64,000 nt of DNA from an uncultured Verrucomicrobiae bacterium (lineage in GTDB: Bacteria > Verrucomicrobiota > Verrucomicrobiia > Limisphaerales > UBA11358): contig CAVUVT010000002.1 in NCBI GenBank assembly GCA_963744965.1, forward strand, positions 79,440-143,439, read 5' to 3'. Below, piece by piece: positions 7,012 to 57,554 of the stretch (positions within the stretch are counted from its first letter, which is position 1; every line of letters begins with the position of its first letter). The position numbers and the translations under genes were made by a program. The notes beneath the pieces were generated by a model. It was given only the letters and a program-made list of their open reading frames with translations, had not been told where the DNA came from and ran no database searches.

Positions 7012-7928
7012 GGCTGGTTTCTTGGTGAACGGATGGGATGAACGGGGGCATTGGTGGTCGTGACGACGGGCGGCGGTGGCGGCGGCGGTGACAACCGATT
7101 CACCAGCACCGTGAATTGATTTTTCAAAGACAGGTCGTTGCGCCCGCCATCCGGCGTGCCGGTGACGGCGAAATAGACGATGCTCCGGCCTTTGGGCGGA
7201 ACTGTGCCGCTGGCGTCGCTGATGGATTGGGGATAAAGCCGGTTGCCTGCGCGAAGACTAAAACTATCCGGCTGATAAATCAGCGGCGTATCGGTTTCAT
7301 TGGTGATGGCGGCGCGGAAAACCAGCGTGTCCTCGGCGTTGAACCGAAAAGCTGCTTCAATCTGGATTTGATAATCGTTGAAGTCGCTAACCAGCGGTTT
7401 GCCGTCGTAGGTGGTGAAACCGACATCGGCGACACTTTCCGGCTGCTGCGCTTTGAGCAACGGAAAGGCTTTGGCCTTGTCGAGCAACGACAGAAGTTTT
7501 AGCGGACTGACTTCGGGCGCATGGCCAGCGCCCGTTTCCCCCGGCGTCGGCAATGCCGCCAGGTTGAGCGCGAGCACCGGCGCATTGCTTTCGATCAGCT
7601 CAAATACATAGGTGTGTTCGTTCCACCGGACATTGAGATTGGCGGATGCCTTGGGAAAAATCGCCCGCACGGAAAGAAACGCCGAACCTTTGGCGTGGGC
7701 CAGTTGAAACAGTCCCGACGTTTTGCCGTCCACGGTGATGCCCGCGCCGTCAATGGCATCAATCGGACTTGGGAAACTGATGGTCGTGACGCGATTGGTG
7801 GCAACCGGCACGAAGACGGCCACACGGTCGTCCAGCCAGAGTTGTTGAATGGCTGGCGATTCGGCCAGCGCAACCGTCGCAGCCAGCACCGTGACGGTGG
7901 ATGATAAGAGATTAACGATTGATTTCAT
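7008..7928 (-). CDS. VirB9/TraK-like T4SS outer-membrane core protein
   Basis: Signal peptide, VTTISFPSPI, position between VirB8-like and VirB10-like genes. Confidence 0.6.
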   Translation of the reverse strand: MKSIVNLLSSTVTVLAATVALAESPAIQQLWLDDRVAVFVPVATNRVTTISFPSPIDAIDGAGITVDGKTSGLFQLAHAKGSAFLSVRAIFPKASANLNVRWNEHTYVFELIESNAPVLALNLAALPTPGETGAGHAPEVSPLKLLSLLDKAKAFPLLKAQQPESVADVGFTTYDGKPLVSDFNDYQIQIEAAFRFNAEDTLVFRAAITNETDTPLIYQPDSFSLRAGNRLYPQSISDASGTVPPKGRSIVYFAVTGTPDGGRNDLSLKNQFTVLVNRLSPPPPPPPVVTTTNAPVHPIRSPRNQP

Positions 7929-8565
7929 ATTTGAAGTCGCCCACGGCGGTGGGGAAGCGTCCGTTCAAGGCCATGTTGGGGTTGCGGATGAAGCGCAGCC
8001 GGAGCGTGAACGGAAACGCCTCGGTGAACGCCTTGTCTTGAAAGATTCCACTGCGGATGATCTGGCCGGTGACAGCGGCCAGCACCTCATTGTCGCGCGT
8101 GGCCAGAATGTCAATGCGGCCAATCTCGGCTTTCTGGTGCAACTGCTTGGAACGAAACTCAACGGCCTCGCTGATACGCTCGTCCTGCGCCTTGGTGAAC
8201 GCGGGTTTAAGGAACAGCAATTTGAGCAGGTCGGAATTGTCAAAATCCTTCGGATTGCGTTCGAGAAAACACAAAGTCGCCAGTTCTGCCTGTTGAACGT
8301 GCAATTGCTTCGCCTCCTGGAATTGCAGCAACGGACTCAAATAATAGGTGCCGGCAGGGTCAATGATGACGACGCGTTCGCGCTGTTTGAACTGCGAGAC
8401 GATGTGATAACGGTCAATCGCTGACAGCACCAACACGGCAACGGTGAACGCAAACCAGAACCACGGCAGCCGGTCTCGCAGCACCAGCAGACGAGTGAGG
8501 TCAAAGCCCTTGCGGGCGGCCACGCCCGGTTTTAATGAAGGTGAAACGTAATCGTGTTTTTTCAT
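7912..8565 (-). CDS. VirB8-like T4SS inner-membrane protein
   Basis: Single TM, periplasmic domain, C-terminal NP..NG.FP..V..F; operon position. Confidence 0.6.
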   Translation of the reverse strand: MKKHDYVSPSLKPGVAARKGFDLTRLLVLRDRLPWFWFAFTVAVLVLSAIDRYHIVSQFKQRERVVIIDPAGTYYLSPLLQFQEAKQLHVQQAELATLCFLERNPKDFDNSDLLKLLFLKPAFTKAQDERISEAVEFRSKQLHQKAEIGRIDILATRDNEVLAAVTGQIIRSGIFQDKAFTEAFPFTLRLRFIRNPNMALNGRFPTAVGDFKYEINR

Positions 8566-9650
8566 AACTTTGTAGGCAGGCTGGCCGGTGCAATCGGCGG
8601 CAACTGGCCAAGATGTTGAAGTATTTGCATGAGCATTTGGCGAACGGCTTTGTCGCCGCTCGCATCATTTTTTGATGAACCGAGTCCGCCGAGTCCCGAC
8701 ACGAGCGAACCGGCGTTGCCAACGCCGCCGGAAGTGGAAAACAAACTCAAAGTTCCCGCCGTTCCACCGGCGGCGACCGCCGCGACGGGACCAAGCGGGG
8801 CGGCGGCCACGGCACCGCTGACGGTGGAGGTTGCGGTTTGAATGGCGGCCCGCGCGCCGCCTGAAAGCAGTTCGCCGCCTGCCAGCGCACCGTCGGCGAT
8901 CACTTTTTGGATGATGACCGGCGCGGCGATGGTGCTGAAAATAATCCAAAAACCCACGGCGGCGACACCGATGGTCTTTTGCAGGTCGGGCAATGTGGAA
9001 GTCGGGTCAATATATTCAAAACTTGGGTCGGTCATGAAATCGAGAATGCCCTGGGTCACGAGCGCGGCCACGGCCCAGCCCAACGGCCAGAGCAAAACTC
9101 CGGCAAGATTGGTCAGATAACGAGTGCCGGTGTGCTTGAGCGCCGGGATCGCCATGAAACCGATGAGCAACGGTGACAGGGCGTAGCCGAGATTGAGAAT
9201 GACGCTTTGAATGATGTAACCCCAGAACATCAGGAGCGCGGCCAGCCAGCCGATAAGCCAGAGGATGACGGTGATGATGAGATCGGTGGTGAGATTGTGC
9301 AGCAACGACATGACATTCCACCACGACGTTTGCGTGGTGGTGTCGCGCTGGATGATGAGCAACTGGACGAACTGCTGATAAACCTGTTTTGGGTCAACGC
9401 CCAAGCCGGACAGGATTGAATCCTGCAACAATTGCTGGATTTGATTGCCCCATACCGGAAGGAATACGAGCAAGGAAGTCAGCACCAGGATTCGCACCAG
9501 CAAGTGCAGCAGGATTCGGTGTGAGAACTGATGATGCACCGTGACGATGATGCCGGTGACAAAAAGAGCGTAGGCCACGCTCAACAGCAAGGTATGAAGT
9601 TCAGCACATTTGGTAAGAAACGTAGGAAAGATGCTGTCGAACGTGGCCAT
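8562..9650 (-). CDS. VirB6/TrbL-like polytopic membrane protein
   Basis: Multiple TMs, LSPLLIGF, Gly/Ala-rich tail. Confidence 0.75.
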   Translation of the reverse strand: MATFDSIFPTFLTKCAELHTLLLSVAYALFVTGIIVTVHHQFSHRILLHLLVRILVLTSLLVFLPVWGNQIQQLLQDSILSGLGVDPKQVYQQFVQLLIIQRDTTTQTSWWNVMSLLHNLTTDLIITVILWLIGWLAALLMFWGYIIQSVILNLGYALSPLLIGFMAIPALKHTGTRYLTNLAGVLLWPLGWAVAALVTQGILDFMTDPSFEYIDPTSTLPDLQKTIGVAAVGFWIIFSTIAAPVIIQKVIADGALAGGELLSGGARAAIQTATSTVSGAVAAAPLGPVAAVAAGGTAGTLSLFSTSGGVGNAGSLVSGLGGLGSSKNDASGDKAVRQMLMQILQHLGQLPPIAPASLPTKL

Positions 9651-9670
9651 AAGGATGAATGGTTTTGAAG

Positions 9671-10471
9671 TTATTGGGTGGGAAATGTGACCGGCGCGTC
9701 GAGCAACTGGAATTTCGTCGCGTAGTTGCTGAAGGCCTCCGTGAATTCAGCGTTTTGCTGTTCGGTCAACGCCTGAATCTGTTTCTGCTGGTCGTTCCGG
9801 TTCTGAATGTCCTGCACCATTGCCGACGACGCAGCTTGATTCACCTCGTCATCGGTGCTGGCAAGGTCGGCATTCAGGCTGGTGAGCACACCATGCAACT
9901 TCTGGACTTCAGCATCCGTGGTGGCATTCTGAAGCTGCTGGGTCGTCTGTGCGATTTGGTTTTTAATGGTCGCGCGTCGTTTGGCCGCGTCGTCGGCAAC
10001 CGCGACAAAGTTGCTGGCGGAGTTGATGATGGCCGAAAACGGTTCGTATTGGTTGGCGGGCCGTTGGATGGTCTGGCCACGGGGCGTCTGGAAGCTCGTG
10101 CCCACGGTGGCGTAGATGCCAGCATCATCAAAGGTCAACGCAATGTTGCCGTTGGCATTGGCCACCAGATTTTCGAGATTCAGCCCCGGCTCAAGGCTTT
10201 TCAGGTCCGCGTCCAGCGGTGCAACCATTGACAGCACGACCTGGGACGGATTGCCGAACACGGCTTCATAATTCTTGAACTCGGTCAGTTGCGAGTCGAG
10301 CGTTTGAATTTGCTGCACCTGGTTTTCAATCATCTGGATGTATTTGGCGATGTCCTGCGCCTCATCAATTATCTGCTGCGAGTGCATCGCCGGGTCATAC
10401 ACGATCCACTGCGCGCGGGCGGAGAACGCCAGCGGCAGGGCGACTGCGATTATTGCGATTAGCTTTTTCAT
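9671..10471 (-). CDS. VirB5/TrbJ-like protein
   Basis: Signal peptide then AQWIVYDP; Q-rich helices. Confidence 0.75.
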   Translation of the reverse strand: MKKLIAIIAVALPLAFSARAQWIVYDPAMHSQQIIDEAQDIAKYIQMIENQVQQIQTLDSQLTEFKNYEAVFGNPSQVVLSMVAPLDADLKSLEPGLNLENLVANANGNIALTFDDAGIYATVGTSFQTPRGQTIQRPANQYEPFSAIINSASNFVAVADDAAKRRATIKNQIAQTTQQLQNATTDAEVQKLHGVLTSLNADLASTDDEVNQAASSAMVQDIQNRNDQQKQIQALTEQQNAEFTEAFSNYATKFQLLDAPVTFPTQ

Positions 10472-10501
10472 GTTTGTTATCCTTCCTTTGGTTGTTTGTT
10501 T

Positions 10502-10526
10502 ATTGGGTGCAGGCTCCGCCTGCTTA
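10502..10526 (-). repeat. 25-nt intergenic hairpin repeat, copy 1
   Basis: TAAGCAGGCGGAGCCTGCACCCAAT; 24/25 identical to 15809-15833. Confidence 0.85.
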
Positions 10527-10940
10527 TTGTTCAATGCGGAGAAATTGGGTGGTGGGCTGGAAAATCACGCCGTCTATCACTTGTTCGGGCAGATGCACTT
10601 CATAGAGCCGGACGCGGCCATTGTCACCGGCTTTGGCCTGCTGCATGGAAACATAAAGCCAATACTGCTGCTTGACCGCATCACTGCGGCCTTTGTCGTA
10701 GCCGGTCTGATAAGATTGGTCGTTCAGTTTGCCGTTGGCGTAATGGAGCGTTTCGCCAATGAGCGCGCCGCCCGCCGCGCCGCCGACAATGGCATAGGGA
10801 TTATTGTGGGACAGTTCCGCGCCAAGGGCCGCGCCGCCCGCGCCCAAGCCGACATCAGTGGCAGTCCGGGTCACAGCAGCGCAGCCCGTGAACAAGCAGG
10901 CGGCGCAAGCAAGGGGAACGATGAATAATATTTTTTTCAT
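10524..10940 (-). CDS. Glycine-zipper lipoprotein of the conjugation operon
   Basis: Lipobox FTGC; GAGGAALG..GGAAGGALIG. Confidence 0.75.
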   Translation of the reverse strand: MKKILFIVPLACAACLFTGCAAVTRTATDVGLGAGGAALGAELSHNNPYAIVGGAAGGALIGETLHYANGKLNDQSYQTGYDKGRSDAVKQQYWLYVSMQQAKAGDNGRVRLYEVHLPEQVIDGVIFQPTTQFLRIEQ

Positions 10941-11200
10941 AAGGTTGATGATTTTAGGGGGAATTCAGGAAATTTGATTTTATGAAGTGGGCGAATCTGG
11001 GCACAGATGGCTTCGCGATATTTCTTAAAAAATCTCACTTGGTTGAGAGCTTTTCTTGCGTCGTGTCTTGCGTCACGCAAAGCGACTTCAACATGTTCAA
11101 GTGCTGCGAAAAGTTCGGCCCATTTGGCTGCTTCTTCCGGCGTCAGTTCGACAACCAGGACGCCGTCACCCCCTCGTTCAGCTTTGCGTGTAGTGTTCAT
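10937..11200 (-). CDS. Hypothetical protein
   Basis: Co-oriented ORF, ATGA-coupled to the next gene. Confidence 0.55.
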   Translation of the reverse strand: MNTTRKAERGGDGVLVVELTPEEAAKWAELFAALEHVEVALRDARHDARKALNQVRFFKKYREAICAQIRPLHKIKFPEFPLKSSTL

Positions 11201-11209
11201 GTTATGGTT

Positions 11210-12067
11210 TTAGTTTCCGCACAGACCGTTGCATTCCTGGTAAAAGCCCAAAAATTCCTGCTCCCGCCGTGATTGGAGCGTGTCAATGGCGGCCTCGGCC
11301 AACGGCACGCACGAGCGATGCACATAGAGTTTTTGTTCAAAGTTCCGGTTGACGATGTTGCCGGGCGTCCGCAACGCCACGTCAATTTCCACGGCGCGTT
11401 GAAAACCAGCCGGGTCGTTGTCCCGCAGCCAGCGCCATTCATCATTGGAGTGATACGGACAGAACACGCACGCCGAGCGCGGCACTTCATGGGGAACGCC
11501 AAAGGCTTTCAGCCGCTGCTGGCACATGGCGCGGGTGATCTGCCGTTCAATCAATGGAAACACCGGCGTCGCCCAGGGAATTTCCGCATACCGCAGCCGC
11601 ACGCGCGCCGCGCGTCCCGCTTCATCAAAGCTGATGCCGAGATATTGCCGGACGTGAATTTCGTCGCGCGGAAACCACTGGCGCGGTTTCAAGCCGACGA
11701 TTTCATGGCGGATGGCCTGTTCAATGACTTCCAATTTGTATTCCTTGGTGCATTGGCGGCGGACCATCCCTTTGGATGAACCCGGTTTGTCCGTAGTATA
11801 GGCGGGGATGCTGGCAAAACGCTGGCCGGTTGAATTGCGCCCGTGCTTCAAATCCTCTCCGAGCTTGCCGATGGAGCGCACCAGGATACGCGGGCCGTTC
11901 AAGGATTTGAGCCATTCTAAATGCCGATAAACAGGCGTCGGTTCCTCGCCAGTGTCGGCAAATATGGCGCAATCAATCTGCGGCGTCAGGTCGCCGCGCA
12001 TGAACATCAAGTAAAGCGTCGTGGACTGAACACCTGCACCGAGATTGAGGATGTGCAATTCTTTCAT
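11210..12067 (-). CDS. PAPS-reductase-like (adenine nucleotide alpha-hydrolase) protein
   Basis: LNLGAGVQST PP-loop-like motif, FADTGEE, RQCT, SACVFCPY; ATG overlaps the virB4 stop. Confidence 0.75.
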   Translation of the reverse strand: MKELHILNLGAGVQSTTLYLMFMRGDLTPQIDCAIFADTGEEPTPVYRHLEWLKSLNGPRILVRSIGKLGEDLKHGRNSTGQRFASIPAYTTDKPGSSKGMVRRQCTKEYKLEVIEQAIRHEIVGLKPRQWFPRDEIHVRQYLGISFDEAGRAARVRLRYAEIPWATPVFPLIERQITRAMCQQRLKAFGVPHEVPRSACVFCPYHSNDEWRWLRDNDPAGFQRAVEIDVALRTPGNIVNRNFEQKLYVHRSCVPLAEAAIDTLQSRREQEFLGFYQECNGLCGN

Positions 12068-14787
12068 GCTTCCTCCTTTTGTGGGTTGGCGTGGGCGATG
12101 ATGCCCTCGACGATGTTGGGACTCTGGCGCAGTTCGCGGGCGCGTTTGTCGAAATGCTCGCCACTGGAAGAACTGCAATAGAGCATCTCGCGCGACGAAA
12201 TGTTGTGAGCCGTGCCGCAAAGATTTCTGCCGGAGTCGGTGTGAAAATAAGTGAACGGAGAATACTTCTGGCCTGATTGATGGTCAGGCAATGGATAATT
12301 CATAATTGCGTGCTTGGTGACTTCCGGCAGCGCGATGTCCTGCGCCATGTCCTCCAAGTCCGCCCGGTCGTTCTGGCGCATGATGAAAAACTGGCGCGAG
12401 TTGCCGAACACGGCGGAACGGATGCGCGACTGTTTGAACCGTGCGTATTGCTGGACAATGGAAATGTTCCAGCAATTGAATTTCCGCAATTGGGCGTAAC
12501 TCTCTTGGACGATTTCCTGTCCGCCGGGAATGTCGAGAAAGCGGGCGACTTCCTCATACACGTTCCGCTTCCGCAGTGCGCGCGGCAGCGTGATGATGTG
12601 CTTGCGCGCGTGGTTCGTGATGAGGAAGCCCGCCGCCGCTTTCAGCTCCTTGGCGGATTCGGGGATGTAACCGAGTTCAAAGTGGGCAATTTTCCCGGTG
12701 AGCGACAAATTGCTCGTGCCATCGAACAAACAGCCATAGTTGCCGTCCCGACACCAGGGCAATATGAGCGTGGCAATTTCGATGATCTGGTCGCGTTCTG
12801 AACCCACCGGGTCGAGCATCATCAATTCCTGCAACATCCGGTGGGTCGGAAATTCCTCCGGCGTGAAGTAGGCGAAAGCGAGGTTGCGGACTTCGCGGCT
12901 GGTCTTGGGTTCTTTCAAGAACCGGAGCACGTCGCCTTCGTTAAACGCGGCGAGATACTCCATTGCCTCATTGAGGTGGCTGGCCTTCCAGTCTCGGAAG
13001 TCCGCAAAAGTTTCCAAAGTCGTTGCGCCCGGCGGCATCCGCTCGGTGCGGAATTTCTGCAACGCCAGCGCGTGCCGCGCGATGCCGAGCAACTGGTCGT
13101 GCCGTTTTTTCTGCCAGTCCTGAAATGAATCCTCGTAAAGCAGGTTCAGGTATTTGGCGATCTGCGCTTGCCGCAGCATTTGTTTGTCCTCCTGACTCGA
13201 TGTGCCAATCATGCGTGCGACAAGCGCAGTCGCGGCCGAAAGATGGTCGGGCGTGAGCGGCAATCCTTTGGTATCAAGATAATTGATGGTCAAATCGCCG
13301 TCGGGATGAATGATGATGGGCCGCGCACCTTCCTCAACCGTCTGCGTGTAGATGCCGTAGGACAAACCTTCTTCGATGATGACGGTGTAGGCGAAATAAC
13401 CTTCAGTCTGTGACAGCAAATCGCAAACGGTCACGGACTTGCCCGCGCCGCTCATGCCAAGCAATACGGCGTGTTGCGGCGACTGATTATCTTTCGAGCC
13501 GGAGAAAGTTTCCACGCCGATTAAATTATTGTTCGGGCCGTCGTAGATGGCCTCGGCAGTCTTCAGGTGGCCGGTGAATGTGCTGGTGACGGGCAGCATG
13601 TCGGCCAGGTATCGGTGTTCCGAATACAGTTTGCGATGCTCATACCGTCCCCATAACCAGCCCGGCCAGGTCTGGAAAAATAAATTTTTGGACGTGCTCG
13701 GCAGATTGCTCTCGAAATACTGCGCCGAATTCATCGAGTTGATGGCGTTCTTGATGGCGCCGGCCTTTGCGGTCAGGCCGTCCTTGCTCTTGTCCCAAAC
13801 CCGGATGACAAATACCGCATTGAAAGGAATGGTCTGCCCCTGCATGAGCGCGTGGATTTTTTTCTGCTTCTTTTCCATCACCGTGAGCAGCGAGATTTTC
13901 TTTTCACTGGCGTAATCGCCGGCCACGCGGTCATGTTCCTTTTCCTCTTTGTTGATTTCCTGGGTGATGGGCAGCGGGTCAATGTTGACGGTGATGGTGT
14001 AGTCCAGCAGCCGGAGATTGGTGAGGCGTTGGATGATGCCCGGATACGTCGTGCGCGGCCAGCGGGTCAGCGTGATGACGGAGTGATAATGGCCGTCCAA
14101 GTAGAAGCCAAAATCACTTTGGCCGTTGCCCTCGCTGTGCCAGCAATTCTCCTGAATCGAAAGTTCCGGCAGAAAATCCTGGGCTGCGTCAAAGTCAAAT
14201 CGGTCGGCCAGCGACGGATTTAAGAACTGTTTGTAATGCTTGAAATGGTCAACGTTGTTCATCGGCAACACGCGCGTGCCGGTGCTGGCGAAAATGTCCA
14301 TTAACAGTTGGTGAGCGTGCTCAAACTCGCCCCGCAACTGGTCGAGGATCGTCAAGTAATACTCGCGGAGCGCGGTGTCGCCCGAAAGCAGCTTGGGCGT
14401 GTTCTCCAAGGGCCGCGAAATGTAAAGGATCACGCGCTGCCGCCGCAGCTTGCGTTCGACCATTGCCTGCCAGTAACGCACGAACCGCTCGTTACGCGAA
14501 CGCTTCGTCCAAGTGTTCTCAAATTTTTCCGTCTCCTGCTGAAACCGGAGCAATTCGGCTTTGTAGTCCGAATCGGAAAAGTATTGGATTTGCAGCCGTT
14601 GATTTTCGTGCAATGAAGCCAGCAACAAACAGAGTTGTTCCTGAAATTCGTTCAGGTCGGCAATCGGACTGTTGGTGAGGTCGGGGGCTTCAAAGACAAA
14701 GCCTTTGGCGATGTAACCGCCACGCCGGAGCGAATTGAACAAAATCAAGTCGTTCACAAAGAATCCATTGGGAGCGCGTTCAAACAT
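12064..14787 (-). CDS. virB4: VirB4-family T4SS ATPase
   Basis: Walker A GMSGAGKS, YEEVARF, QLRKFN; 907 aa. Confidence 0.88.
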   Translation of the reverse strand: MFERAPNGFFVNDLILFNSLRRGGYIAKGFVFEAPDLTNSPIADLNEFQEQLCLLLASLHENQRLQIQYFSDSDYKAELLRFQQETEKFENTWTKRSRNERFVRYWQAMVERKLRRQRVILYISRPLENTPKLLSGDTALREYYLTILDQLRGEFEHAHQLLMDIFASTGTRVLPMNNVDHFKHYKQFLNPSLADRFDFDAAQDFLPELSIQENCWHSEGNGQSDFGFYLDGHYHSVITLTRWPRTTYPGIIQRLTNLRLLDYTITVNIDPLPITQEINKEEKEHDRVAGDYASEKKISLLTVMEKKQKKIHALMQGQTIPFNAVFVIRVWDKSKDGLTAKAGAIKNAINSMNSAQYFESNLPSTSKNLFFQTWPGWLWGRYEHRKLYSEHRYLADMLPVTSTFTGHLKTAEAIYDGPNNNLIGVETFSGSKDNQSPQHAVLLGMSGAGKSVTVCDLLSQTEGYFAYTVIIEEGLSYGIYTQTVEEGARPIIIHPDGDLTINYLDTKGLPLTPDHLSAATALVARMIGTSSQEDKQMLRQAQIAKYLNLLYEDSFQDWQKKRHDQLLGIARHALALQKFRTERMPPGATTLETFADFRDWKASHLNEAMEYLAAFNEGDVLRFLKEPKTSREVRNLAFAYFTPEEFPTHRMLQELMMLDPVGSERDQIIEIATLILPWCRDGNYGCLFDGTSNLSLTGKIAHFELGYIPESAKELKAAAGFLITNHARKHIITLPRALRKRNVYEEVARFLDIPGGQEIVQESYAQLRKFNCWNISIVQQYARFKQSRIRSAVFGNSRQFFIMRQNDRADLEDMAQDIALPEVTKHAIMNYPLPDHQSGQKYSPFTYFHTDSGRNLCGTAHNISSREMLYCSSSSGEHFDKRARELRQSPNIVEGIIAHANPQKEEA

Positions 14788-16285: not shown

Positions 16286-16315
16286 GAAAAAGTCTTTTGG
16301 GCACGATGGAAGGCC

Positions 16316-26822: not shown

Positions 26823-26881
26823 AGCGTATATAGGCACGATTTGTTAGGAGGTGGCAATTATATCCTTTGCGACGGTAACAA

Positions 26882-29538: not shown

Positions 29539-29726
29539 GGTTCCGATTAAAGGTGATATATTATAGGAGTTTGAGGAATATGACAATCATTTTTTCATAT
29601 TCTTATGAAGGCTTTGAGTTGCAGCAGCCGTGGTCATCTTCGTCATGCGACACCAAAAGGATTGGTTCCAAACCATCTAAAACCTGTCGCATGATTCAGA
29701 GACATGGACACGCCTTGGAGATTTAA

Positions 29727-38768: not shown

Positions 38769-38796
38769 AAATTGATTGGATTGTTCGCTCTGAGGT

Positions 38797-41452: not shown

Positions 41453-41674
41453 GTGGCTAAAACGTTGCGACATCCGAAAATCATCGGCGAAGCCATTCGC
41501 CGGTTCAGAAAGCGCGCCAAAATGAGTCAGGAAAGACTGGCGGAAAAAGCTGACTTGCATCCGGTTTACATTGGCGAATTGGAACGAGGCGAGGAAGCGG
41601 CCAGTGTTCATGCCCTCATGCGAATCGCCAAGGCCCTTGGCATTCGGGTGCGCGATCTGGTTGACGAACTGTGA
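41453..41674 (+). CDS. XRE/C-protein-like HTH regulator
   Basis: SQERLAEKADLHPVYIGELERG. Confidence 0.88.
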   Translation: MAKTLRHPKIIGEAIRRFRKRAKMSQERLAEKADLHPVYIGELERGEEAASVHALMRIAKALGIRVRDLVDEL

Positions 41675-41862
41675 GTGCCGCGAGCCGCGATCCGCTGTAA
41701 AAGGAAAGTGTGCAGCGATCTTGGCGCATTCCCGTGTCGCCGTTACCTTCTGATTCATTCTGCTATGTTTCTAAATGTTTTATCACAAAATGCAAGAATA
41801 AAAATGATAGCTAATAGAATCTGTGCGCTTTGCCTGCTCCCTGCTTGGCTTTCTGGCCAAGA

Positions 41863-42081
41863 ATGGTCACCAAAAAAGATCGCAAACTATTGGGTGAAGG
41901 TATTCGTAAATACCGCAAGCAAGCTGGTTTGACCCAGGAAAAACTGGCCGAGCGGATAGACATCAATCCCGTTTATATGGGACAAATTGAGCGTGGCTAC
42001 CGGGTGCCGACTGTGGATGTTCTCCTGCGAATCGCGCGGGCGTTAAAAGTTCACTTGCGCGATATTGTCAGCGAACTGTGA
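41863..42081 (+). CDS. XRE/C-protein-like HTH regulator (paralogue)
   Basis: TQEKLAERIDINPVYMGQIERG. Confidence 0.88.
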   Translation: MVTKKDRKLLGEGIRKYRKQAGLTQEKLAERIDINPVYMGQIERGYRVPTVDVLLRIARALKVHLRDIVSEL

Positions 42082-42146
42082 CCAGTAGCGGCAAAAATCA
42101 ACGCCGCAAATGTAAGCATCAAAGCTGGTTTTCATCCGCGGACGCA

Positions 42147-42374
42147 TCATAAAAGCGTTTTGCCCTTGCTGGGATGAATTCTGACTTCCTCACGGATGGC
42201 GGCGCGGACTTTCGCTTCGATGCGTTCAACGAAGCTCATGCCGACCCGGCTGAATTTATTGGCTGGCCGGATCGCGGCGGCAATTTCCAGCGCGGTTTGT
42301 TTCACCTTGCTCCGGCAAAGATGCGGAGTGGTGTTGATACTTTTGAGCGTGTCCGTCATTTCAGTTGTTTCCAT
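42147..42374 (-). CDS. Candidate histone-fold protein (75 aa)
   Basis: LCRSKVKQ..RVGMSFVERIEAKVRAAIREEV..GKTL fits the alpha1-L1-alpha2-L2 pattern of prokaryotic histones. Confidence 0.55.
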   Translation of the reverse strand: METTEMTDTLKSINTTPHLCRSKVKQTALEIAAAIRPANKFSRVGMSFVERIEAKVRAAIREEVRIHPSKGKTLL

Positions 42375-42719
42375 AATTTGCTTTTTTGGTTGCGTCGCTG
42401 ATTCATTCAACGACACCGCTATTTTATCAGGCGCACTTTTGCTGAATTGAAAATTTGGCGACTGAAGCCTTACAAACATTGAACGAAACCACTGTCGCCG
42501 CCGACACTTGACACAAAAGCGCGCTGATTTCACGCGGGGCGACTTGGCCGGTTTTCAACTTCGACGCCATTTTCATTCAATGTTTGCAGGGCAAAAAATA
42601 GTTTGAGATTTTTTTCCATCGGTGCGGACGGCAGACGCGCCGGGTGAGATCAGACCGGCGAAAAAGCGATAGCCGTGATGAACCGGCACTTTTTATCATT
42701 GTCCAAGTGAAACGACTTT

Positions 42720-43355
42720 TCACCGGCGCGTAATGAGCCGCTTTGCGAACATTCCAATTTTTCGCGCCATGCGGGTGAATGGGCTGAATTGCCCATTGCG
42801 CCGCCGGGCCTCAAGCGGATTTTGGAATTGCGGATTGTTATTAAAAGCATCGAGAGAATTTGTTTTCTTCGCTTCCTCTGGAAAAAGCGAGTCCATCGGA
42901 ATCTGCAAGGCTTTGGCAACGAGAACCAAATCGTAATCTTTTACACGAGTGCGCCGCGTTTCAAGATTGGCAATGATTTCGCGCGTCATGGGCGCGCCCA
43001 TCGTTCGGATGACCCCGGCCAGTTTGCTTTGACTCCATTTTTGGTTGCGTCGGAACGTCTGAATCTGCTGGCCGGTCAAATTTCTAATTTTCGCCCCTGA
43101 CAGCGCGAGGCTGGATTCCGACTTCCCGCCGATGGGCGGAAGCAGGTCAGTGATGTCAGCCTTGAGAATATGGGCGATGACGGGAATGAAACGCGCGGGC
43201 ACGTCCGCAATACCGACTTCGTATCTCGCCAACTGACAGCGTGAGACGGGAAATCCCTTTTGCTGACAGGCGGCGGCAAGAGACTTTTGTGTCCAGTGGC
43301 GTGACTGGCGCAGCGCGCGAAGGCGAAATCCGACTTTGGAAAGAGTTCGTTTCAT
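42720..43355 (-). CDS. Tandem double-XRE HTH regulator
   Basis: Two HTH units: WTQKSLAA..LARYE and WSQSKLAG..IIANLE. Confidence 0.8.
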   Translation of the reverse strand: MKRTLSKVGFRLRALRQSRHWTQKSLAAACQQKGFPVSRCQLARYEVGIADVPARFIPVIAHILKADITDLLPPIGGKSESSLALSGAKIRNLTGQQIQTFRRNQKWSQSKLAGVIRTMGAPMTREIIANLETRRTRVKDYDLVLVAKALQIPMDSLFPEEAKKTNSLDAFNNNPQFQNPLEARRRNGQFSPFTRMARKIGMFAKRLITRR

Positions 43356-43365
43356 AGTCAGAGGG

Positions 43366-44826
43366 TCAGAATAATTTGCGCCACAAGGAGAACCATTTGG
43401 CGACTTGCCCATTGGCTTCCAACGGCGGGAGCGTTATCCGTCGAAATCCCTTTTCACAATGCACCAGCACACATTCATGGTCGCGGAGCGTGCGAAGCTG
43501 ATACGGCTTGATTTTGTGTTCTTCGGCCTCGGAATAATTGACGTTGCGCCTTCCGGCACTTGATCCCCACGACCGTTTGATGACGCGCTTTTTGCCGAGA
43601 AAATCCGCAGCTTGGACTGCATCAGCTTCATCGGCGGAACGAAAAATCATCCGGTTGCGGAGATTCAGCGTCAGCACTTTTGATTTGTCCGCACCAAGTG
43701 GGGGCACAAGCGACGTGGTGGACTGCGCGGCGGCAACGATGGTGGCGCCCGCCTCGCGGATCACGTCCACGCAGTTGTAATCGCTGGTGCCGTCCTCGCT
43801 CGCCGTCATAAACCGCTGCGCTTCATCCGCCCACAGGATGAGCAAATTGTTTTTTCCGCGCTGGCTCTTGGCCTGGTCGAACCGGCGCAAGGCGTGATTG
43901 TAAAAGAGCAATTTCAAAAATGTGTTCACATAACGCCGCTCGGTCTGAAATTTTTGCGGCATGGTCACGAGGATGATTTTGCCCTTATCAATTTCCGAAA
44001 AATCGAATGTGCTTTCTTCGACGCAGAAAATTTCCGCCACTTCGGGCGTCAGGAAGTATTGCAGATAATTCCCAATGGTTTCGCGGACGCCGCCAAGCTG
44101 CTCTGCCGGCTGGTCGAGGAAACGATGCTTGAAATGAAAATTCAGGGCATAGCGGCGTGGTGTCTGCAAAGGGAGCTTGTTCAAAAATTCCAATTCCTCG
44201 TCCAGCTTCGGCTTGCTGGAAAGCACATCCAATGCCCCGGATAGCGTTACTGGCCGTGACAATTCGGCGAGTAATTCCAACGCATATGCGATGTGCGTCT
44301 GCGCCTGATTTTTGAAAAAACCTTTGTCCCCGCCCTGGCCGAGACTGGTAGCCGTGTCCACCACGAATTTTGCATACGTCGTGAACGGGATGCTGCGGTC
44401 GCCGGTGAGATTGAACCGATGCAACGATTGTCCGGCTTGGCCGTCGGAATGAATTTTCAAATGAATCAAATCGGTTTCGCGTTCGTAGTGTCGCGCCATT
44501 GCCGAAAGCGTTTCCCAATAGACACCTTTTTCGTCAATGCACAGGCCGCCCCATTTGTCCTCGTTTTGAAACACCTGATGCGCCAGTTGATTGATGCCGG
44601 AAGTGGTTTTGCCGGAGCCGGTGTCGCCGGTGATGAGCCAGCCGCGACAAAATTGATTGCGTTTCCAAGTCAGGCCGCCAAGTCGGGCGACATGGCGATT
44701 GCATAGCAGCAAAAGCCGCCCAGTAATGATTACCAGCAAAAGGGCATATCCAAGCGCGAAGCCGCGCAGCGATTTAGACAACGCTGGAAGATGAAATGTG
44801 GAAAATGGGATAAAATCGAGTTTCAT
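43366..44826 (-). CDS. Type IV coupling protein (VirD4/TraD-like)
   Basis: N-terminal TM, GDTGSGKT, WADEAQRF, AAQS. Confidence 0.85.
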   Translation of the reverse strand: MKLDFIPFSTFHLPALSKSLRGFALGYALLLVIITGRLLLLCNRHVARLGGLTWKRNQFCRGWLITGDTGSGKTTSGINQLAHQVFQNEDKWGGLCIDEKGVYWETLSAMARHYERETDLIHLKIHSDGQAGQSLHRFNLTGDRSIPFTTYAKFVVDTATSLGQGGDKGFFKNQAQTHIAYALELLAELSRPVTLSGALDVLSSKPKLDEELEFLNKLPLQTPRRYALNFHFKHRFLDQPAEQLGGVRETIGNYLQYFLTPEVAEIFCVEESTFDFSEIDKGKIILVTMPQKFQTERRYVNTFLKLLFYNHALRRFDQAKSQRGKNNLLILWADEAQRFMTASEDGTSDYNCVDVIREAGATIVAAAQSTTSLVPPLGADKSKVLTLNLRNRMIFRSADEADAVQAADFLGKKRVIKRSWGSSAGRRNVNYSEAEEHKIKPYQLRTLRDHECVLVHCEKGFRRITLPPLEANGQVAKWFSLWRKLF

Positions 44827-45158
44827 AAAAACTTTCCGATGAGAAAACCGGCGATGGCGGCGGCGAAGACGGCACAAATGGCGGTTGGCAACTCCACCGC
44901 CCGAATTTCTTTCAATGCCCGTTCCTTCAAAATCTTTGTGGCTTCGGTCAAAGCCGCGATGTCTTTTTCAAATTCATCGAGCGATGGCATTTGCCGGTGA
45001 CGTATTTCATCCCAATGGTTTTGGTGAATCCGAAACAAATCCAGCAATAATAAAATCGGGTCATCATCCTTGATTTTGAACTGCTCCTTCCATTTGGCGA
45101 TGGCCTGCAAAAAATCCTCGTCAAAGTCGGGCGGTGTTGGTTGGTCGGGTGCGCTCAT
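44823..45158 (-). CDS. IncP TraM-like protein
   Basis: DDDPILLL motif, C-terminal TM; follows the TraL-like gene. Confidence 0.5.
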   Translation of the reverse strand: MSAPDQPTPPDFDEDFLQAIAKWKEQFKIKDDDPILLLLDLFRIHQNHWDEIRHRQMPSLDEFEKDIAALTEATKILKERALKEIRAVELPTAICAVFAAAIAGFLIGKFL

Positions 45159-45856
45159 GATTTTGCCGGCAACAATAATTCGGCGACGGATTCAATTTCA
45201 GCGTAAAATTTGCGCTGCCACGTTTGCAGCCGCTGGCGGTCCAGTAAATGCAGATGGCCGTCGGCCACGGCGGGCGTGATGGTGAGATTGTTGTGGCTCA
45301 ATTCCTCCACCAGCCAGGGCTGCAATTTGCTCATGGTGATTTCCTTCGCGCCGAGTTCCCTTAACAGCCGCTTGCGGATGACGGAATGGTCAAAAACGGC
45401 AAAATCATTGCTGTGAACCGTGTTTCGCAGCACAACGTAGGCGCAGACGTTTTTGAGTTTGTCGGTAATGCGATTAAGCTGGTCAATGCTGTCGGACTCC
45501 TGATTGACGGGCATGACGAGCGTGAGTGCGGCGGACAGGTCTTTTAGCGTTGGCTGCAAGGCAATCTCGTCGAAATAATTGAAAAACACTTCGGTGGACG
45601 CGGCGCGGCAGTCCACCACGACGAGATCGGTTTTTTCCAGTGCGCGAATCATGGCGTCCAGGCCGCGCGGATGGGACAAATCCAAAAACTGCACATCGTC
45701 GCCGTGAAAGCGTTTCAACGTGGAATTTTCGTTGTCGCAGTCGCAGGCGACAAATTTGATGTTCTTGTCTTTGAGGTATTGGACGAAATTGACGGCAAAG
45801 AAACTTTTGCCGACACCGCCCTTGCCGTTAAAAATCAAATCGAGGCGTTTGTTCAT
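45155..45856 (-). CDS. TraL/ParA-MinD-like ATPase
   Basis: GKGGVGKS deviant Walker A; DCDNEN. Confidence 0.8.
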   Translation of the reverse strand: MNKRLDLIFNGKGGVGKSFFAVNFVQYLKDKNIKFVACDCDNENSTLKRFHGDDVQFLDLSHPRGLDAMIRALEKTDLVVVDCRAASTEVFFNYFDEIALQPTLKDLSAALTLVMPVNQESDSIDQLNRITDKLKNVCAYVVLRNTVHSNDFAVFDHSVIRKRLLRELGAKEITMSKLQPWLVEELSHNNLTITPAVADGHLHLLDRQRLQTWQRKFYAEIESVAELLLPAKS

Positions 45857-47107: not shown

Positions 47108-49918
47108 ATGGTCACGGCCAAGACGCAATACAATTTGAAGAACGCAAAGGAATACTTTGAGGAGCATCTTTGCGTGGGCGATTATTACGATGAAGGGCAG
47201 CGGGTGACGGGCCTGTGGTTCGGCGTGGGCGCGGAACGCCTGGGTTTGACCAGCAAGGTTGGCGCAGAAGCGTTTCTTGCCCTATGTGAGAACCGGCATC
47301 CGGCATCCGGCGAGACATTGACGCAACGGCTGAATACCACCCGGAAGGATGATGCCGGTGACAACACTGCCAATCGCCGGATTTTTTATGACTTCACGTT
47401 CTCGCCGCCAAAGTCGGTTTCGGTCGCGGCATTGGTCGGCGCAGATAACCGGATTTTGGAAGCGCACGCACAAGCCGTCCGTTCGGCGATGAAGGAATTT
47501 GAAGCCTTTGCCACAACGCGCGTGCGGGTCGGCAAGGCGAATTGTGACCGCTCCACCGGCAATTTTGTCGCCGCCACGTTCACACACGACACGTCCCGCG
47601 CATTAGACCCGCATTTGCATACTCACTGCATTATCTTCAACGCCACGTTTGATGCCGCCGAAAATCGTTGGAAGGCGCTGCAAAATTATGAACTTCTGCG
47701 GGCGCGGAAATTTGCCGAGAACGTCTATTACCACGAACTCGCCCGCAAGCTGCGCGGGTTCGGTTATGGGATTCACAACCTGGCGCGTGGGGATTTTCAA
47801 ATCGAGGGCATTTCGGATGACATTTGTGAACGCTTTTCCAAGCGGCATACGCAGATTGACGAGGCCATTAAAAAGTTGCTGGCCGAAAAGCCGGAATGCG
47901 TGGGTGGCGATTTGATGGACATGCGCGAGTTGACTGCTACGGCGGAGCGGGCGCGGAAGCAAAAGGAATTGAGCCATGACGAGCAACGGGCGTTATGGGA
48001 TGTGCAGTTGAGTGAAAGCGAGCGCGCCGCCTTGCGCGAGCTTCCGAAGCGTTTGGAAAAAGCCACTGGCAACCGGATGAGCGTGGGTGAGTCGGTGCAA
48101 TGGGCAGAGGATCATCTGTTTGACCGCAACTCGGTCGCGCTGGAATGCCAATTATGGCAGCAGGCATTGGAGCGAGGACGCGGAGAAAACTTCTCCGTGG
48201 ATGAACTCAAAGAGTTCACGCGCCAGCGTCCTTACATTCGCAATTCAGAACGTCCTGCCGAAGTGACGTTGCGGGAAGTGCTGTTGCGGGAGATGGAAAT
48301 TGTCCAGACCGTCAAGGACGGCGCGGGGAATTGCCGGCCACTGGTGGAACATTCCTACACGGCAGATCCAAAACTGGATGACGAGCAACGTCTGGCTTTA
48401 GATTCGCTGCTGCGCTCCACCAATGCGGTTTCGCTGTTCCGTGGCGGCGCGGGCACGGGCAAAAGTTTTGTCCTTGGCGAGCTGGTCGAGCAAGTCCGGC
48501 GATCCGGCAAAAACGTGATTGTCCTCGCACCACAACGCCAGCAAGTAGTGGCAATGGAGCAAGCGAAATTTCCGTCGCCGACGACGGTGACAAGTTTTTT
48601 GCTCAAGCGTGAGTTGGTCGAGGGTGCGGTAATCATCGTTGATGAGGCCGGGCAGATTGGCGGTCGTCAAATGGCTGAACTGCTCCGGTTGGCGCGGGAG
48701 CGAAATGCGCGGGTAATTTTGTCAGGTGACACGCGCCAGCACGGAGCGGTTGAAGCATCGGATGCGTTGCTGGCCATTGAACTGTATTCCGGCGTCAAGC
48801 CGGTCGAGCTTCACACGATTCGCCGCCAAGACCCGGCGCTTGGCCGCAGTAAAAAAGAAAGTTCCAAGATCAGGCAGTATCGCAAGGCCGTTGAGGTGGC
48901 GGCGGCGGGAAAGCTCGCCGAATCATTTGAGCGACTGGACAAAATGGGTGCGGTGGTTTCCTGCGGTTTGGGTGAACAGGCGGACAAGCTGGCCGATGAA
49001 TATGTCCGGCTGGCGGAAGAAAAGGCTTCCGCCGTGGTGGTGTCGCAAACCTGGGCGGAAGTGCATCGCGTCAATTCCAAGGTGCGTGATGGGCTTAAAG
49101 GAAAGGGATTGCTCGGTGCAAATGATGTCACCGTTCAAGCATTGGACAAAATGGATTTAACCAACGCGCAAAAGCGCGATAAACGATTTTATCCGCAAGA
49201 TGCGGTGATTGTGTTCAATCAGAAGGTGCGGCAAACCGAGCCGGGGAAGCGCGGGAAGTTGGCGGGCATCGTGAAGGCCGGTGTGCTGGTCGAGATTGAC
49301 GGCAAGTGCGTTACCGTGTCAAACAAGGTGCTGGATAAAATCACCGTCTGCCTGCCGCGTGAAATTCCGGTCGCGCAAGGCGATAAATTGCATCTCAAGG
49401 CCAATCGCAAGCTGGCCTCCGGCGCGCGCGTCACCAACGGCGAATTGGTCGCCGTCAAATCAGTTCACGCCAACGGAAACATTGAATTAACCGACGGCCG
49501 GGTTCTGGACAAAAGTTTCCGTGAATTTCTTCCCGGCTACGCCGTTACGTCCTACGGTTCACAGGGCAAGACGGTGGATTATGTTCTCTTTTCCGATTCC
49601 ACCATCAAGGCCGCAACCAACGCTCAACAATGGTATGTCACCATTTCGCGCGGGCGGCGTGGCGTCCGCATTTTCACGCCTGATAAGGAGCAGTTGCGCG
49701 AGAATCTGGCACGTTCCGGCCACAGGCCGTTGGCATTGGAATTTGCCGGCGGCTTGCGCCCGCTTACCCGCAATCCACTTTGGGACCGGCTGCATGGTTA
49801 TCTCCTGCGATTCAGCCAGCGCGCCGCCGACACGTTTTGCCGATTGAAACAATCCCGTCGTCATTCTCAACCAGGACAAAAACATGAACACCAAAACGCC
49901 CGAATGTTACACCACTGA
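47108..49918 (+). CDS. MOB_F (TrwC/TraI-like) relaxase-helicase
   Basis: DYY, DFTFSPPKSVS, HDTSRALDPHLHTH, GGAGTGKS, IVDEAG, SQGKTVD. Confidence 0.93.
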   Translation: MVTAKTQYNLKNAKEYFEEHLCVGDYYDEGQRVTGLWFGVGAERLGLTSKVGAEAFLALCENRHPASGETLTQRLNTTRKDDAGDNTANRRIFYDFTFSPPKSVSVAALVGADNRILEAHAQAVRSAMKEFEAFATTRVRVGKANCDRSTGNFVAATFTHDTSRALDPHLHTHCIIFNATFDAAENRWKALQNYELLRARKFAENVYYHELARKLRGFGYGIHNLARGDFQIEGISDDICERFSKRHTQIDEAIKKLLAEKPECVGGDLMDMRELTATAERARKQKELSHDEQRALWDVQLSESERAALRELPKRLEKATGNRMSVGESVQWAEDHLFDRNSVALECQLWQQALERGRGENFSVDELKEFTRQRPYIRNSERPAEVTLREVLLREMEIVQTVKDGAGNCRPLVEHSYTADPKLDDEQRLALDSLLRSTNAVSLFRGGAGTGKSFVLGELVEQVRRSGKNVIVLAPQRQQVVAMEQAKFPSPTTVTSFLLKRELVEGAVIIVDEAGQIGGRQMAELLRLARERNARVILSGDTRQHGAVEASDALLAIELYSGVKPVELHTIRRQDPALGRSKKESSKIRQYRKAVEVAAAGKLAESFERLDKMGAVVSCGLGEQADKLADEYVRLAEEKASAVVVSQTWAEVHRVNSKVRDGLKGKGLLGANDVTVQALDKMDLTNAQKRDKRFYPQDAVIVFNQKVRQTEPGKRGKLAGIVKAGVLVEIDGKCVTVSNKVLDKITVCLPREIPVAQGDKLHLKANRKLASGARVTNGELVAVKSVHANGNIELTDGRVLDKSFREFLPGYAVTSYGSQGKTVDYVLFSDSTIKAATNAQQWYVTISRGRRGVRIFTPDKEQLRENLARSGHRPLALEFAGGLRPLTRNPLWDRLHGYLLRFSQRAADTFCRLKQSRRHSQPGQKHEHQNARMLHH

Positions 49919-55995: not shown

Positions 55996-57423
55996 TTAAT
56001 TTTGTGTCGCGTCATTTATTTGGCAATCAGAAAGCAAATTACCAACCGGCAGTATCGCCCGCTGACGCGGGTCAGTATAGTAGCTTGCAGTCATTTGAAT
56101 GGTCGTGTGCCGCAATTGCGCGCTGCCGGCAAAAATGCCGTTTTGTTTGACGATGGCGTCTCCAAAAAGTTTTCGCAACTCATGAACTTTTTTGCGAGCC
56201 GTAATACCCTTTCCCGCAAGCCATTCAATCAACGTTCTCCAATGAGGTTCGCAACGGTAAAAATTATACTTGGTGCTGCTCTTCCATTCCATCGGACTAC
56301 GAATAACAAATTCATCAGTTGAATTGGTCAGGCTCAATAATTCCTTCATCATCGCCGAATCAACATAAACGACCCCGCATGAATCATGTTTTGGCTGACG
56401 GTATGAGGTTGATTCAATGCAAATCGAATTGTCGGCTGGTTGAAGCTGGTTGCGTAAAAGCGTGTCCGCCTCGGCCCGCCGCAATCCTGCGCAAAGGCAG
56501 AGAAGAAACAACTTGTATGCTTCTGGATGTTCAAGCCGCAACTCATCACGCGCGGCTTTCAGCAATCCGGCGTAAGTTACGCCTAGCGGCGCATGAAATT
56601 TCATCGAACCGTTTTTCTCGAATTTCAATGCCTCAAACCAATAGATTTCTCGTTCTCCCTTTTGACCATCTTTCACTTTGAACTTGGGGACGACAACCGA
56701 AAAGTTTGGCTGATTGATAATGTTGGCACTGAACAAACTTTTGCAATGTCGCAAAGCAGCATTAAACGAACGATTCACTTCCAGCCGCCGTTTTGGATCA
56801 ACGCCTGCGCGTGCCAAATAAGCGACTTTCCAATCTGCTGCTGCTGCTGGCGTGATGGTTCGCAGCGGCGTGGCCTCGACTTTTTGCAACCATGCAGAAT
56901 GTTTTCCGTGCTGATAGCTGTATTTAGATTTGTCTTTTGCAAGCCCACGGATTTGCGCTGTCAACATCCGAAAATACTGCGCGTATCTGTGAAAGGTTTT
57001 TGGCTTCAAATTGCTTACGCGCTCCACTTCTCTCAAAAATACACCGATTGTTGCCTCACCAGCCGGCGCAACTGGAGTTGACGGCGGCACGGGTTTGCCG
57101 AAATTAGCCAGAGTTGCATCCCATCCTTTGGCGACGAGAGAAAGATAAATGTCCCGCGCTTTGGTGGCAGCGTCCTCTTTGTTCGCGGTGTCCAGATCAA
57201 AACTTCGACGAATGCCACGGTATTTTATCCGCACCGACCATTCGCCGATTTCAAAATTTTGCCCGCGATAGGAATACGTCCGATGTTCGAGCCGGGCTTT
57301 CCAATAACCGACGTGGGTTTTCGGAAAATGCCGTTGAGATTGCTTGTCTGAAGTGAGGTCAGAATTCTTGGCCACTTCTTGGCCACTTTTTCTGTCGTGG
57401 GCAGTAGTAACGAGTTGTTCCAT
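55996..57423 (-). CDS. Tyrosine recombinase / integrase
   Basis: GLRRAE, HELRK, LRH, ASYY catalytic pattern; next to the tRNA half. Confidence 0.9.
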   Translation of the reverse strand: MEQLVTTAHDRKSGQEVAKNSDLTSDKQSQRHFPKTHVGYWKARLEHRTYSYRGQNFEIGEWSVRIKYRGIRRSFDLDTANKEDAATKARDIYLSLVAKGWDATLANFGKPVPPSTPVAPAGEATIGVFLREVERVSNLKPKTFHRYAQYFRMLTAQIRGLAKDKSKYSYQHGKHSAWLQKVEATPLRTITPAAAADWKVAYLARAGVDPKRRLEVNRSFNAALRHCKSLFSANIINQPNFSVVVPKFKVKDGQKGEREIYWFEALKFEKNGSMKFHAPLGVTYAGLLKAARDELRLEHPEAYKLFLLCLCAGLRRAEADTLLRNQLQPADNSICIESTSYRQPKHDSCGVVYVDSAMMKELLSLTNSTDEFVIRSPMEWKSSTKYNFYRCEPHWRTLIEWLAGKGITARKKVHELRKLFGDAIVKQNGIFAGSAQLRHTTIQMTASYYTDPRQRAILPVGNLLSDCQINDATQN

Positions 57424-57515
57424 AATACGAGCGTAACGCACATAATGTTGATTTCACGTTTGTTATGGCGACTTATTACGACTCGCTACTACTCTGGACG
57501 ACTGCATACATTTCA

Positions 57516-57554
57516 ATTATGAGTCGCCTGCTCTAACCACTGAGCTATGGGCCC
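57516..57554 (-). tRNA. 5' half only of tRNA-Ile2/Met(CAU); att junction
   Basis: GGGCCCATAGCTCAGTGGTTAGAGCAGGCGACTCATAAT, then no 3' anticodon stem or T-arm. Confidence 0.85.

Follow-up and report, generated by a model that had tools for sequence, protein, structure and literature searches.

The window, that is, the whole stretch of 64,000 nucleotides analysed here, encodes a 75-residue basic protein that we interpret as a histone reduced to its first two helices. Our preferred explanation, to which we assign a probability of roughly 0.6, is that this minimal histone-fold protein, composed of α1 and α2 only, likely forms a handshake homodimer; the homodimer would likely bind and bend DNA without sequence preference and would serve the conjugative element (ICE) on which its gene lies as an optional nucleoid-associated protein (Table 1). 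We are least sure of the role, in which the protein would shape the element's DNA locally and so tune the element's own transcription and recombination, by analogy with other element-encoded nucleoid proteins; in our judgment this role has an even chance of being correct. Bacterial histones are reported in <2% of genomes, with those characterised so far encoded on chromosomes; to our knowledge, every described histone type keeps at least one turn of α3. The gene is real, ICE-borne and optional, and its product, a probable minimal histone fold, is probably new within the prokaryotic histones.

Table 1. Features of the histone-fold gene and its carrier element (positions in the window).
Feature	Position	Strand	Remarks
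Two-helix histone-fold gene	42147..42374	minus	predicted 75-aa product; profile, AF2 model, conservation, selection
Portable cassette	42140..42620	minus	gene + ~240 bp upstream, ~470 bp; ends of homology
Putative hairpin or operator-like palindrome	42394..42414	minus	8–9 bp, conserved; 20 nt upstream of ATG
Predicted extended −10 element	42421..42429	minus	TGnTAAAAT; near-invariant in 31 sequences
Long-range inverted repeat	42467..42592		22-nt arms, 86% complementary, 82 nt apart
Two convergent XRE-HTH genes (41453, 41866)	41453..42081	plus	downstream of histone gene
Double XRE-HTH regulator	42720..43412	minus	upstream of histone gene; only in some relatives
Type IV coupling protein (T4CP) of ICE	43366..44877	minus	TrwB_AAD_bind E 1e-12
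TraL-like P-loop protein	45155..45856	minus	NF010461 E 9e-16, far below cut-off
MobF/TrwC relaxase-helicase	47108..49918	plus	PF08751 E 2e-80; NF041492 above cut-off
Mating-pair formation genes, same ICE	5962..14787	minus	TrbI/VirB10 5962–7011, VirB4 12064–14787
Predicted tyrosine integrase	55996..57441	minus	481 aa; R321, H420-x-x-R423, H445..Y motifs
Split tRNA(CAT), 5′ half with 12-bp att core	57516..57554	minus	right end of ICE

The gene and the fold of its product

The frame runs from an ATG start to a TGA stop; its translation ends in K-G-K-T-L-L and has a pI of 10.1 (14 Lys and Arg vs 8 Asp and Glu). The preliminary description had recognised this basic ORF correctly; the peptide that it quoted corresponds to residues 17–75. 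A word-indexed search returned 194 candidates, 192 of them close homologues, and a profile from 26 close homologues identified a wider family of 509 representatives (at 50% clustering) among 1.84 billion. Our selection set consisted of the window and 52 of the 61 genome loci, from which 52 distinct sequences were obtained; L044 (a second copy on the contig of L043) was dropped, as were eight loci whose matches were partial or differed in length. These sequences establish a real gene under purifying selection: in pooled pairwise comparisons, in which pairs are not independent, dN/dS is 0.093 for the whole gene, 0.065 for the core (codons 14–75) and 0.32 for the tail, and third positions account for 55 of the 86 core columns that vary. 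Two of the antisense frames are interrupted in 52/52 sequences and the third in 37/52, so the antisense ORFs at 42174 and 42196 were ruled out. Also ruled out were the longer starts in the databases (110–142 aa), which take in the predicted promoter and which only some relatives have as open frames; the predicted −10 element falls within the 110-aa extension used by gene callers, favouring the 75-aa start. Four metatranscriptome runs contained 5–7% of the sampled words; the related-element contigs in these data span the gene, the non-coding DNA upstream and the T4CP gene, although contigs cannot show transcription.

The AF2 model of the monomer (pLDDT 90) has the α1-L1-long α2-L2 topology of the histone fold: a variable N-terminal tail of ~13 residues, α1 (residues 21–35), L1 with R43-V44, α2 (residues 46–66) and an end that reads H-P-S-x-G-K-T-L, with nothing helical beyond residue 66. 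The model thus reproduces the layout that had been proposed by eye (α1, a loop, a long α2 and a stop just past G-K-T), including the absence of α3. The same absence characterises the family, in which 107 of 123 members terminate 1–2 residues past T73; at least 15 residues follow T73 in only four of the 123, so a C-terminal tetramerisation helix is not found. Even the truncated α3 of 3–4 residues that serves to recognise α3 histones (Schwab et al. 2024) is lacking, that is, α3 is wholly absent. With 21 residues, α2 is shorter than that of nucleosomal histones and aligns without gaps to α2 of HTkC, a histone of Thermococcus kodakarensis.

The sequence evidence for the fold comes from profile A2, which contains 125 sequences picked from the listed close and wider-family matches (fragments and doublets excluded). 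Compared with 177,635 PDB sequences, A2 gives four matches at E values up to 10; HTkC (PDB 9F2C, E 6.3e-5) is the sole significant match and the only one with E < 0.2, in an alignment of 35 residues that spans L1 to L2 only. Profile A4, built from 16 distant members and not including the query, also identifies 9F2C as the top match (E 0.01). The single 75-aa sequence retrieves just an SRP protein from the PDB (E 1), and a profile of close members retrieves nothing there.

The structural evidence comes from searches with the monomer model. Rows 1–22 of a VIA search of 48,161 chains are all histones or histone-fold proteins by title, with Z scores of 3.7–4.9; every monomer Z is thus <5, and VIA warns that Z < 8 can mean a common arrangement. 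HTkC (Z 4.8, rmsd 2.2, 53 residues aligned, 28% identity) and HBb of Bdellovibrio bacteriovorus (Z 4.4, rmsd 2.0, 51 residues, 16% identity) are tied on Z, and HLp of Leptospira perolatii also has Z 4.4. The Foldseek comparison that the preliminary description had called for agrees in kind, with histone-fold entries in 10/14 rows, yet not in significance (best E 0.89). Among Atlas neighbours that bear a family name, CBFD_NFYB_HMF is found in 14–47% of members (scores 0.84–0.86); we regard these as leads only. Foldseek against BFVD gives no match at E < 0.001, the best being an uncharacterised Caudovirales protein (E 0.32).

No family in Pfam, NCBIfam or PHROGs matches the 75-aa protein. For the 125 members, 25 of 38 families are listed, each matched by a single member, and Pfam histone, CBFD_NFYB_HMF and DUF1931 are absent from these 25. 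The preliminary description had expected a histone or DUF1931 profile match from a true histone; the lack of one is offset by the profile match to HTkC. Because independent weak signals agree, we are highly confident that the 75-aa protein has a histone fold. We also predict from sequence a kinship to the HTkC-type histones, with archaeal HTkC, and not the Bd0055 (HBb) of the earlier comparison, as the closest solved relative by sequence; HBb shares 16% identity and gives no profile match.

Proposed DNA-contacting residues, known histones and probable oligomeric state

The positions conserved in the 125 members are in α1 (K/R25, 98%; K/R21, 76%), in L1 (R43, 97%; V44, 93%) and at the C-terminal end (P68, 98%; S69, 90%; G71, 99%; K/R72, 76%; T73, 98%), and the pI exceeds 9.5 in 122/125 members. 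Conservation across the wider family does not extend to the ‘SK’ of the L..SKVK pattern noted earlier (S22, 39%; K23, 23%). In the profile alignment, L1 R-V of HTkC is opposite R43-V44 and its K-T-L is opposite K72-T73-L74. Hocher et al. (PMC10627809) describe a DNA-contact pair in the histones of archaea and eukaryotes, an arginine of L1 that is held by a threonine of L2, and report that the L1 arginine is not conserved in bacterial singlets. R43 and T73 would, from their position, be that pair, and DNA contacts would be made by K/R25 and R21 of α1, R43 of L1 and K72-T73 of L2. Non-specific DNA binding is predicted; the conserved basic positions and the pI support it indirectly.

The comparison with the face-to-face (FtF) α3 histones, that is, HTkC (PMC11390915; bioRxiv 10.64898/2025.12.06.692711) and HLp (PDB 9QT0; bioRxiv 10.1101/2025.05.08.652872), identifies a common core of ~60 residues with a short α2, R-V in L1, K-T-L in L2 and a basic α1. 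Unlike the FtF histones, the 75-aa family has no α3, no RxTxxxxD clamp (RD clamp) and no conserved tetramer arginine; it has an H-P-S-x-G motif instead, and it is found patchily on ICEs and phages rather than as a core chromosomal gene. RxTxxx(x)D is absent from the last 25 residues of all 125 members; the RD-clamp arginine of HTkC is opposite a gap or Gly, and the aspartate is missing as well. HBb (PDB 8CMP; PMC10627809, PMC11317129) is likewise a small basic singlet with conserved basic residues in α1, and our prediction for the 75-aa protein is that, like HBb, it goes no further than the dimer and therefore bends DNA. In contrast to HBb, however, the family lacks the RKTxxxD motif of bacterial dimer histones and the one-turn α3, retains the L1 arginine and is accessory, whereas HBb is essential.

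With the catalogued phage histones the family shares a small fold borne on mobile elements, and the A0A2E7QIQ9 group (PMC11390915) also lacks RxTxxxxD. Other phage histones have been named VTTH, VHHH, VFFH and BBVH (bioRxiv 10.1101/2024.12.06.627149). These phage histones are described as having a truncated α3 and, at the C-terminus, an additional helix, a loop or a tail rich in lysine; unlike these, the 75-aa family ends two residues past the L2 threonine. The family may overlap with VHHH or with unclassified clusters, and some of its phage members may already be catalogued. The 75-aa protein falls outside the FtF, bacterial-dimer and phage-histone groups as PMC11390915 defines them. That article's main text, in the part covered, mentions neither Verrucomicrobia nor conjugation nor mobile elements; the sequence table of Hocher et al. 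contains no member with the family motifs; and the supplements of PMC13681535, in the portion available, contain none of four contig or sample identifiers that we tested. A histone without α3, or one borne on an ICE, was not found in the literature covered, which includes few of the subscription papers.

The oligomeric state was considered in the light of HTkC, in which R45 is required for the tetramer; the R45A protein is a dimer, and HTkC lacking R45 gives a gel-shift pattern like that of DNA-bending HBb (bioRxiv 10.64898/2025.12.06.692711). R45 aligns with I66, a position at which Arg is found in 30% of members; the adjacent R65 is K/R in 47%; and the tetramer Asn of HTkC, four residues past R45, corresponds to K70. 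Because the RD clamp, α3 and the arginine of the FtF tetramer have been lost, and because HTkC without this arginine is dimeric, we infer a dimer and not a tetramer; a DNA-binding dimer is, we believe, likely. A tetramer could instead be assembled by a new interface formed by the near-invariant H-P-S-x-G-x-T-L end, wrapping ~50–60 bp as HTkC and HLp do. HTkC, the closest solved relative by sequence, is tetrameric and uses its C-terminal carboxyl in the interface (bioRxiv 10.64898/2025.12.06.692711); also, P68, S69, G71 and the fixed C-terminus are constrained exactly where FtF dimers meet, and the frequently basic position 65 is beside the position aligned with R45. However, the FtF-interface residues (the R45 equivalent, the Asn, the RD clamp and α3) are not conserved, and the conserved end is explicable as a helix cap in place of the RD clamp, so we consider this tetramer unlikely.

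Natural tandem doublets provide a view of how two such units might associate. About six members of the family contain two full repeats (e.g., P0189 and P0254); a larger tandem group (P0149, P0200, P0206, P0236, P0249 and ~40 relatives; alignment A5) consists of proteins of ~100–130 aa with one full repeat and a shortened second repeat, seemingly without α1. The comparison of profiles A2 and A5 gives a probability of 99.7. In the HLp dimer, L1 of one chain pairs with L2 of its partner (bioRxiv 10.1101/2025.05.08.652872). The model of the P0189 doublet (pLDDT 81.5) has four helices, and its only strand residues are R30-V31 and T111-L112; the monomer model has none. As the sole strands, these two must pair with one another, which would be the HLp-type L1-L2′ contact. 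A VIA search with the P0189 model places an AAA+ activator domain at the top (Z 6.1, 63 residues aligned), followed by the histone doublets 9CVT, 7N8N, 8UQE, 1WWI, 1Q9C and 1F1E (Z 4.4–5.4, 82–99 residues aligned, rmsd 3.5–4.6, or 3.0–5.1 for the histone doublets taken together); Foldseek with the same model lists no histone. The AAA+ helical domain is related to the histone fold (Alva et al., PMC1847821), so the doublet searches are compatible with a histone although not decisive.

The carrier element and the mobile cassette

The gene sits in a 58.9-kb tRNA-integrated ICE. An integrase (recognised by motifs only, with no Pfam or NCBIfam match at the thresholds used), att repeats, a relaxase, a coupling protein and VirB4 are found in one bounded segment, along with an SNF2-methylase helicase; the 12-bp att core occurs in the genome only at G000:C2:78054 (left of the window) and at C2:136955 (window 57516), which bounds the 58.9 kb. 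The ICE location that the preliminary description proposed is supported by the split tRNA, the duplicated att core, MobF, the T4CP and VirB4; in the traKLM-T4CP-HTH run that it placed upstream of the gene, the T4CP and the HTH gene are identified, traL has a profile match (NF010461) far below the cut-off, and traK and traM are assigned by position alone. The host tRNA (anticodon CAT) is split in the anticodon loop, its 5′ half at the right end and its 3′ half past the left end; a complete, different tRNA(CAT), apparently a replacement copy, lies just inside the left end (G000:C2:78017–78301 region). An identical 26-bp doublet repeat is found inside both ends (window 57365–57390 and G000:C2:78121–78146); these repeats are likely arm-type sites of the integrase.

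Several other features of these elements were observed. The methylase-SNF2 helicase of 1,700 aa (G000:C2:78535–83691, extending to window 4252; L047:11688–16832), which we take to be DarB-like, is found in 27/60 loci. Window positions 32361–40434 contain cargo: an Rhs/YD-repeat protein of 2172 aa that includes SpvB and TcdB_toxin_midN domains, preceded by a LamG protein and followed by a 266-aa gene that is perhaps an immunity gene; similar LamG-Rhs pairs come after the histone gene in L050, L054, L073 and L090. Two similar copies of a ~177-aa gene (26298–26837 and 29723–30250) bracket another stretch of cargo, the second with an apparent frameshift close to its 3′ end. At 16274–17227, a stand-alone ClpB-type AAA domain protein is encoded divergently from a pilin-like gene, and it is located beside the T4SS in relatives as well. 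Elsewhere in the genome, G000:C5:802834–809248 contains 15 clustered tRNA genes with integrase-like genes on the flanks, possibly an island-borne tRNA array.

The distribution of the gene is that of a mobile cassette. A match is found in 37/163 genomes of the genus (20/84 among the near-complete ones) and in 2/400 other genomes sampled from the phylum; most named relatives belong to the Verrucomicrobiota (Limisphaerales), as the host therefore likely does too. Homology ends at 42600–42639 in 52/57 alignments and at 42140–42159 in 42/57. A survey for ICE linkage, as had been suggested, locates a mobility marker (conjugation, integrase or helicase) in the flanks of 54 of 60 loci (L044 dropped), and of 38 of the 39 loci of ≥15 kb, compared with 13 of 181 20-kb windows of the genome itself (element included); the markers were taken from two gene-carrying elements, which favours matches. 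Two positions recur, one near the coupling-protein gene (18/60 loci) and one near a second, tRNA-targeting integrase (31/60 loci), with both in a single locus; tRNA-Cys, -Ser or -Leu is located ~1.6 kb upstream in 18 of the 53 loci scanned. In the integrase-linked arrangement, as in L047 (10260–10715 and 10945–11691), the histone gene is turned toward a small gene that we label xis-like (no Pfam match) and toward a regulator with an HTH and a sigma-70 region 4.

The cassette and the conjugation genes are separable. The gene is found in 28/72 genomes with VirB4 or the T4CP vs 9/91 without (related genomes do not count as independent, and the assemblies are incomplete); accordingly, 44 of these 72 give no match to the gene, and 9 of the 37 genomes with the gene match neither VirB4 nor the T4CP. 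Five related T4CP regions, selected because no match lay there, encode 76–94% identical coupling proteins, and they lack both the gene and its upstream region; three of the five retain the flanking HTH and response-regulator genes. Because the gene is missing from the five related elements checked, it is an accessory cassette, dispensable for the ICE family.

The wider family extends to viruses. In the three nearest Atlas clusters, 50–90% of the members with a record are viral; six IMG/VR loci are among 34 candidate stretches, and a viral scan with P0353 gives one 604-bp locus. By ORF reading, the phage relatives inspected (L002, L003, L004 and L007) are located among recombination, replication and other non-structural genes, and terminase genes are near two of the inspected viral loci. 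Query P0223 has no match in the INPHARED phages, query P0001 has none in the PLSDB plasmids, and a cluster look-up of ten further family members gives no informative names. The ICE form is thus one branch of a mobile-element family whose distant relatives are largely phage-borne; given a mostly viral wider family and the nine genomes that have the gene without VirB4 or T4CP, the function is not specific to conjugation.

The ~240 bp upstream of the gene are 83% identical by column in 31 sequences, and this conservation suggests that they are the gene's own promoter region. A sigma-70 consensus scan that requires a −35/−10 pair finds no site there, and Rfam has no match to the region. In the putative hairpin, changes on both sides occur at two pairs, in one sequence each. 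A near-invariant TTGACA near 42510 on the plus strand is among further conserved blocks; those at 42467–42592 could be regulator sites, a divergent promoter, or an RNA or ssDNA structure. Compared with shuffled sequences, the region folds with a mean z of −2.2 on the coding strand and −1.6 on the other (31 sequences); for an ssDNA (Frpo-like) promoter, both strands fold better than shuffles, and covariation is slight (5/31 pairs). Terminator-like matches at 42519–42536 are at chance level (2 found vs 2.1 expected) and were rejected.

Role of the protein and its significance

The likely functional analogues are the nucleoid-associated proteins encoded by mobile elements, that is, the plasmid homologues of H-NS, HU and IHF (PMC6606824), which are also small, basic, accessory proteins on transferable elements. 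Their folds are unrelated to that of the 75-aa protein, and nothing in our results points to AT-rich targeting, bridging or silencing by the latter.

Two more specialised roles were considered. The preliminary description had suggested that the protein coats incoming DNA or silences cargo, which we regard as speculative. In a form of the coating idea, the protein could be an establishment or anti-defence factor that, early after entry, coats or occludes the element's DNA against host nucleases or silencers; its accessory, cassette-like distribution, the structured region upstream with a predicted promoter of its own and the non-structural company of the inspected phage relatives speak for this role. 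However, the gene is oriented as the traL operon, away from the presumed oriT, whereas an orientation toward oriT is usual for genes that are expressed from entering ssDNA, and in 31/60 loci it is near the tRNA-targeting integrase instead. We consider this role quite improbable. Still less probable is that the protein is dedicated to the intasome or the relaxosome as an IHF- or Xis-like architectural cofactor: the gene is directly after an integrase and faces the xis-like gene in one arrangement, it comes after the coupling-protein operon in the other, and arm-type repeats are found inside both element ends, but the five related T4CP regions do without the gene, it is found with two different integrases, and the host has two HU/IHF-family genes. 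That the likeness is superficial, the product being a basic two-helix protein (e.g., protein-binding, AAA-lid-like) and either something other than a histone or incapable of binding DNA, would fit the weak structural scores, the lack of family matches and the AAA+ domains at the top of the doublet search but is very improbable, given the HTkC profile match (E 6e-5) with motif-level agreement, three methods that put histones first and the kinship of the AAA+ helical domain with the histone fold (Alva et al., PMC1847821).

We continue to favour a DNA-bending dimer that the element carries as an optional nucleoid protein. A more far-reaching version can be offered tentatively, as a joint proposal that we doubt more than we believe: ICEs and phages of uncultured bacteria would have in common an extensive and uncatalogued family, the smallest histones known, in which an H-P-S-x-G cap replaces α3 and the RD clamp; with it they would package their own DNA as histone-based chromatin that controls their gene expression or conceals them from host defences while they are transferred.

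The family escapes Pfam, NCBIfam and PHROGs, so histone surveys based on those profiles undercount it. Without α3 and the RD clamp and with the DNA-contact residues kept, it defines a minimal histone fold and is a 60-residue test object for what α3 is for. Its element pairs with and without the cassette occur in nature, making the function directly testable. Its spread on ICEs and phages is a route for histones between bacterial lineages, and, if the protein is a DNA-binding histone, histones would join the toolkit of conjugative elements.
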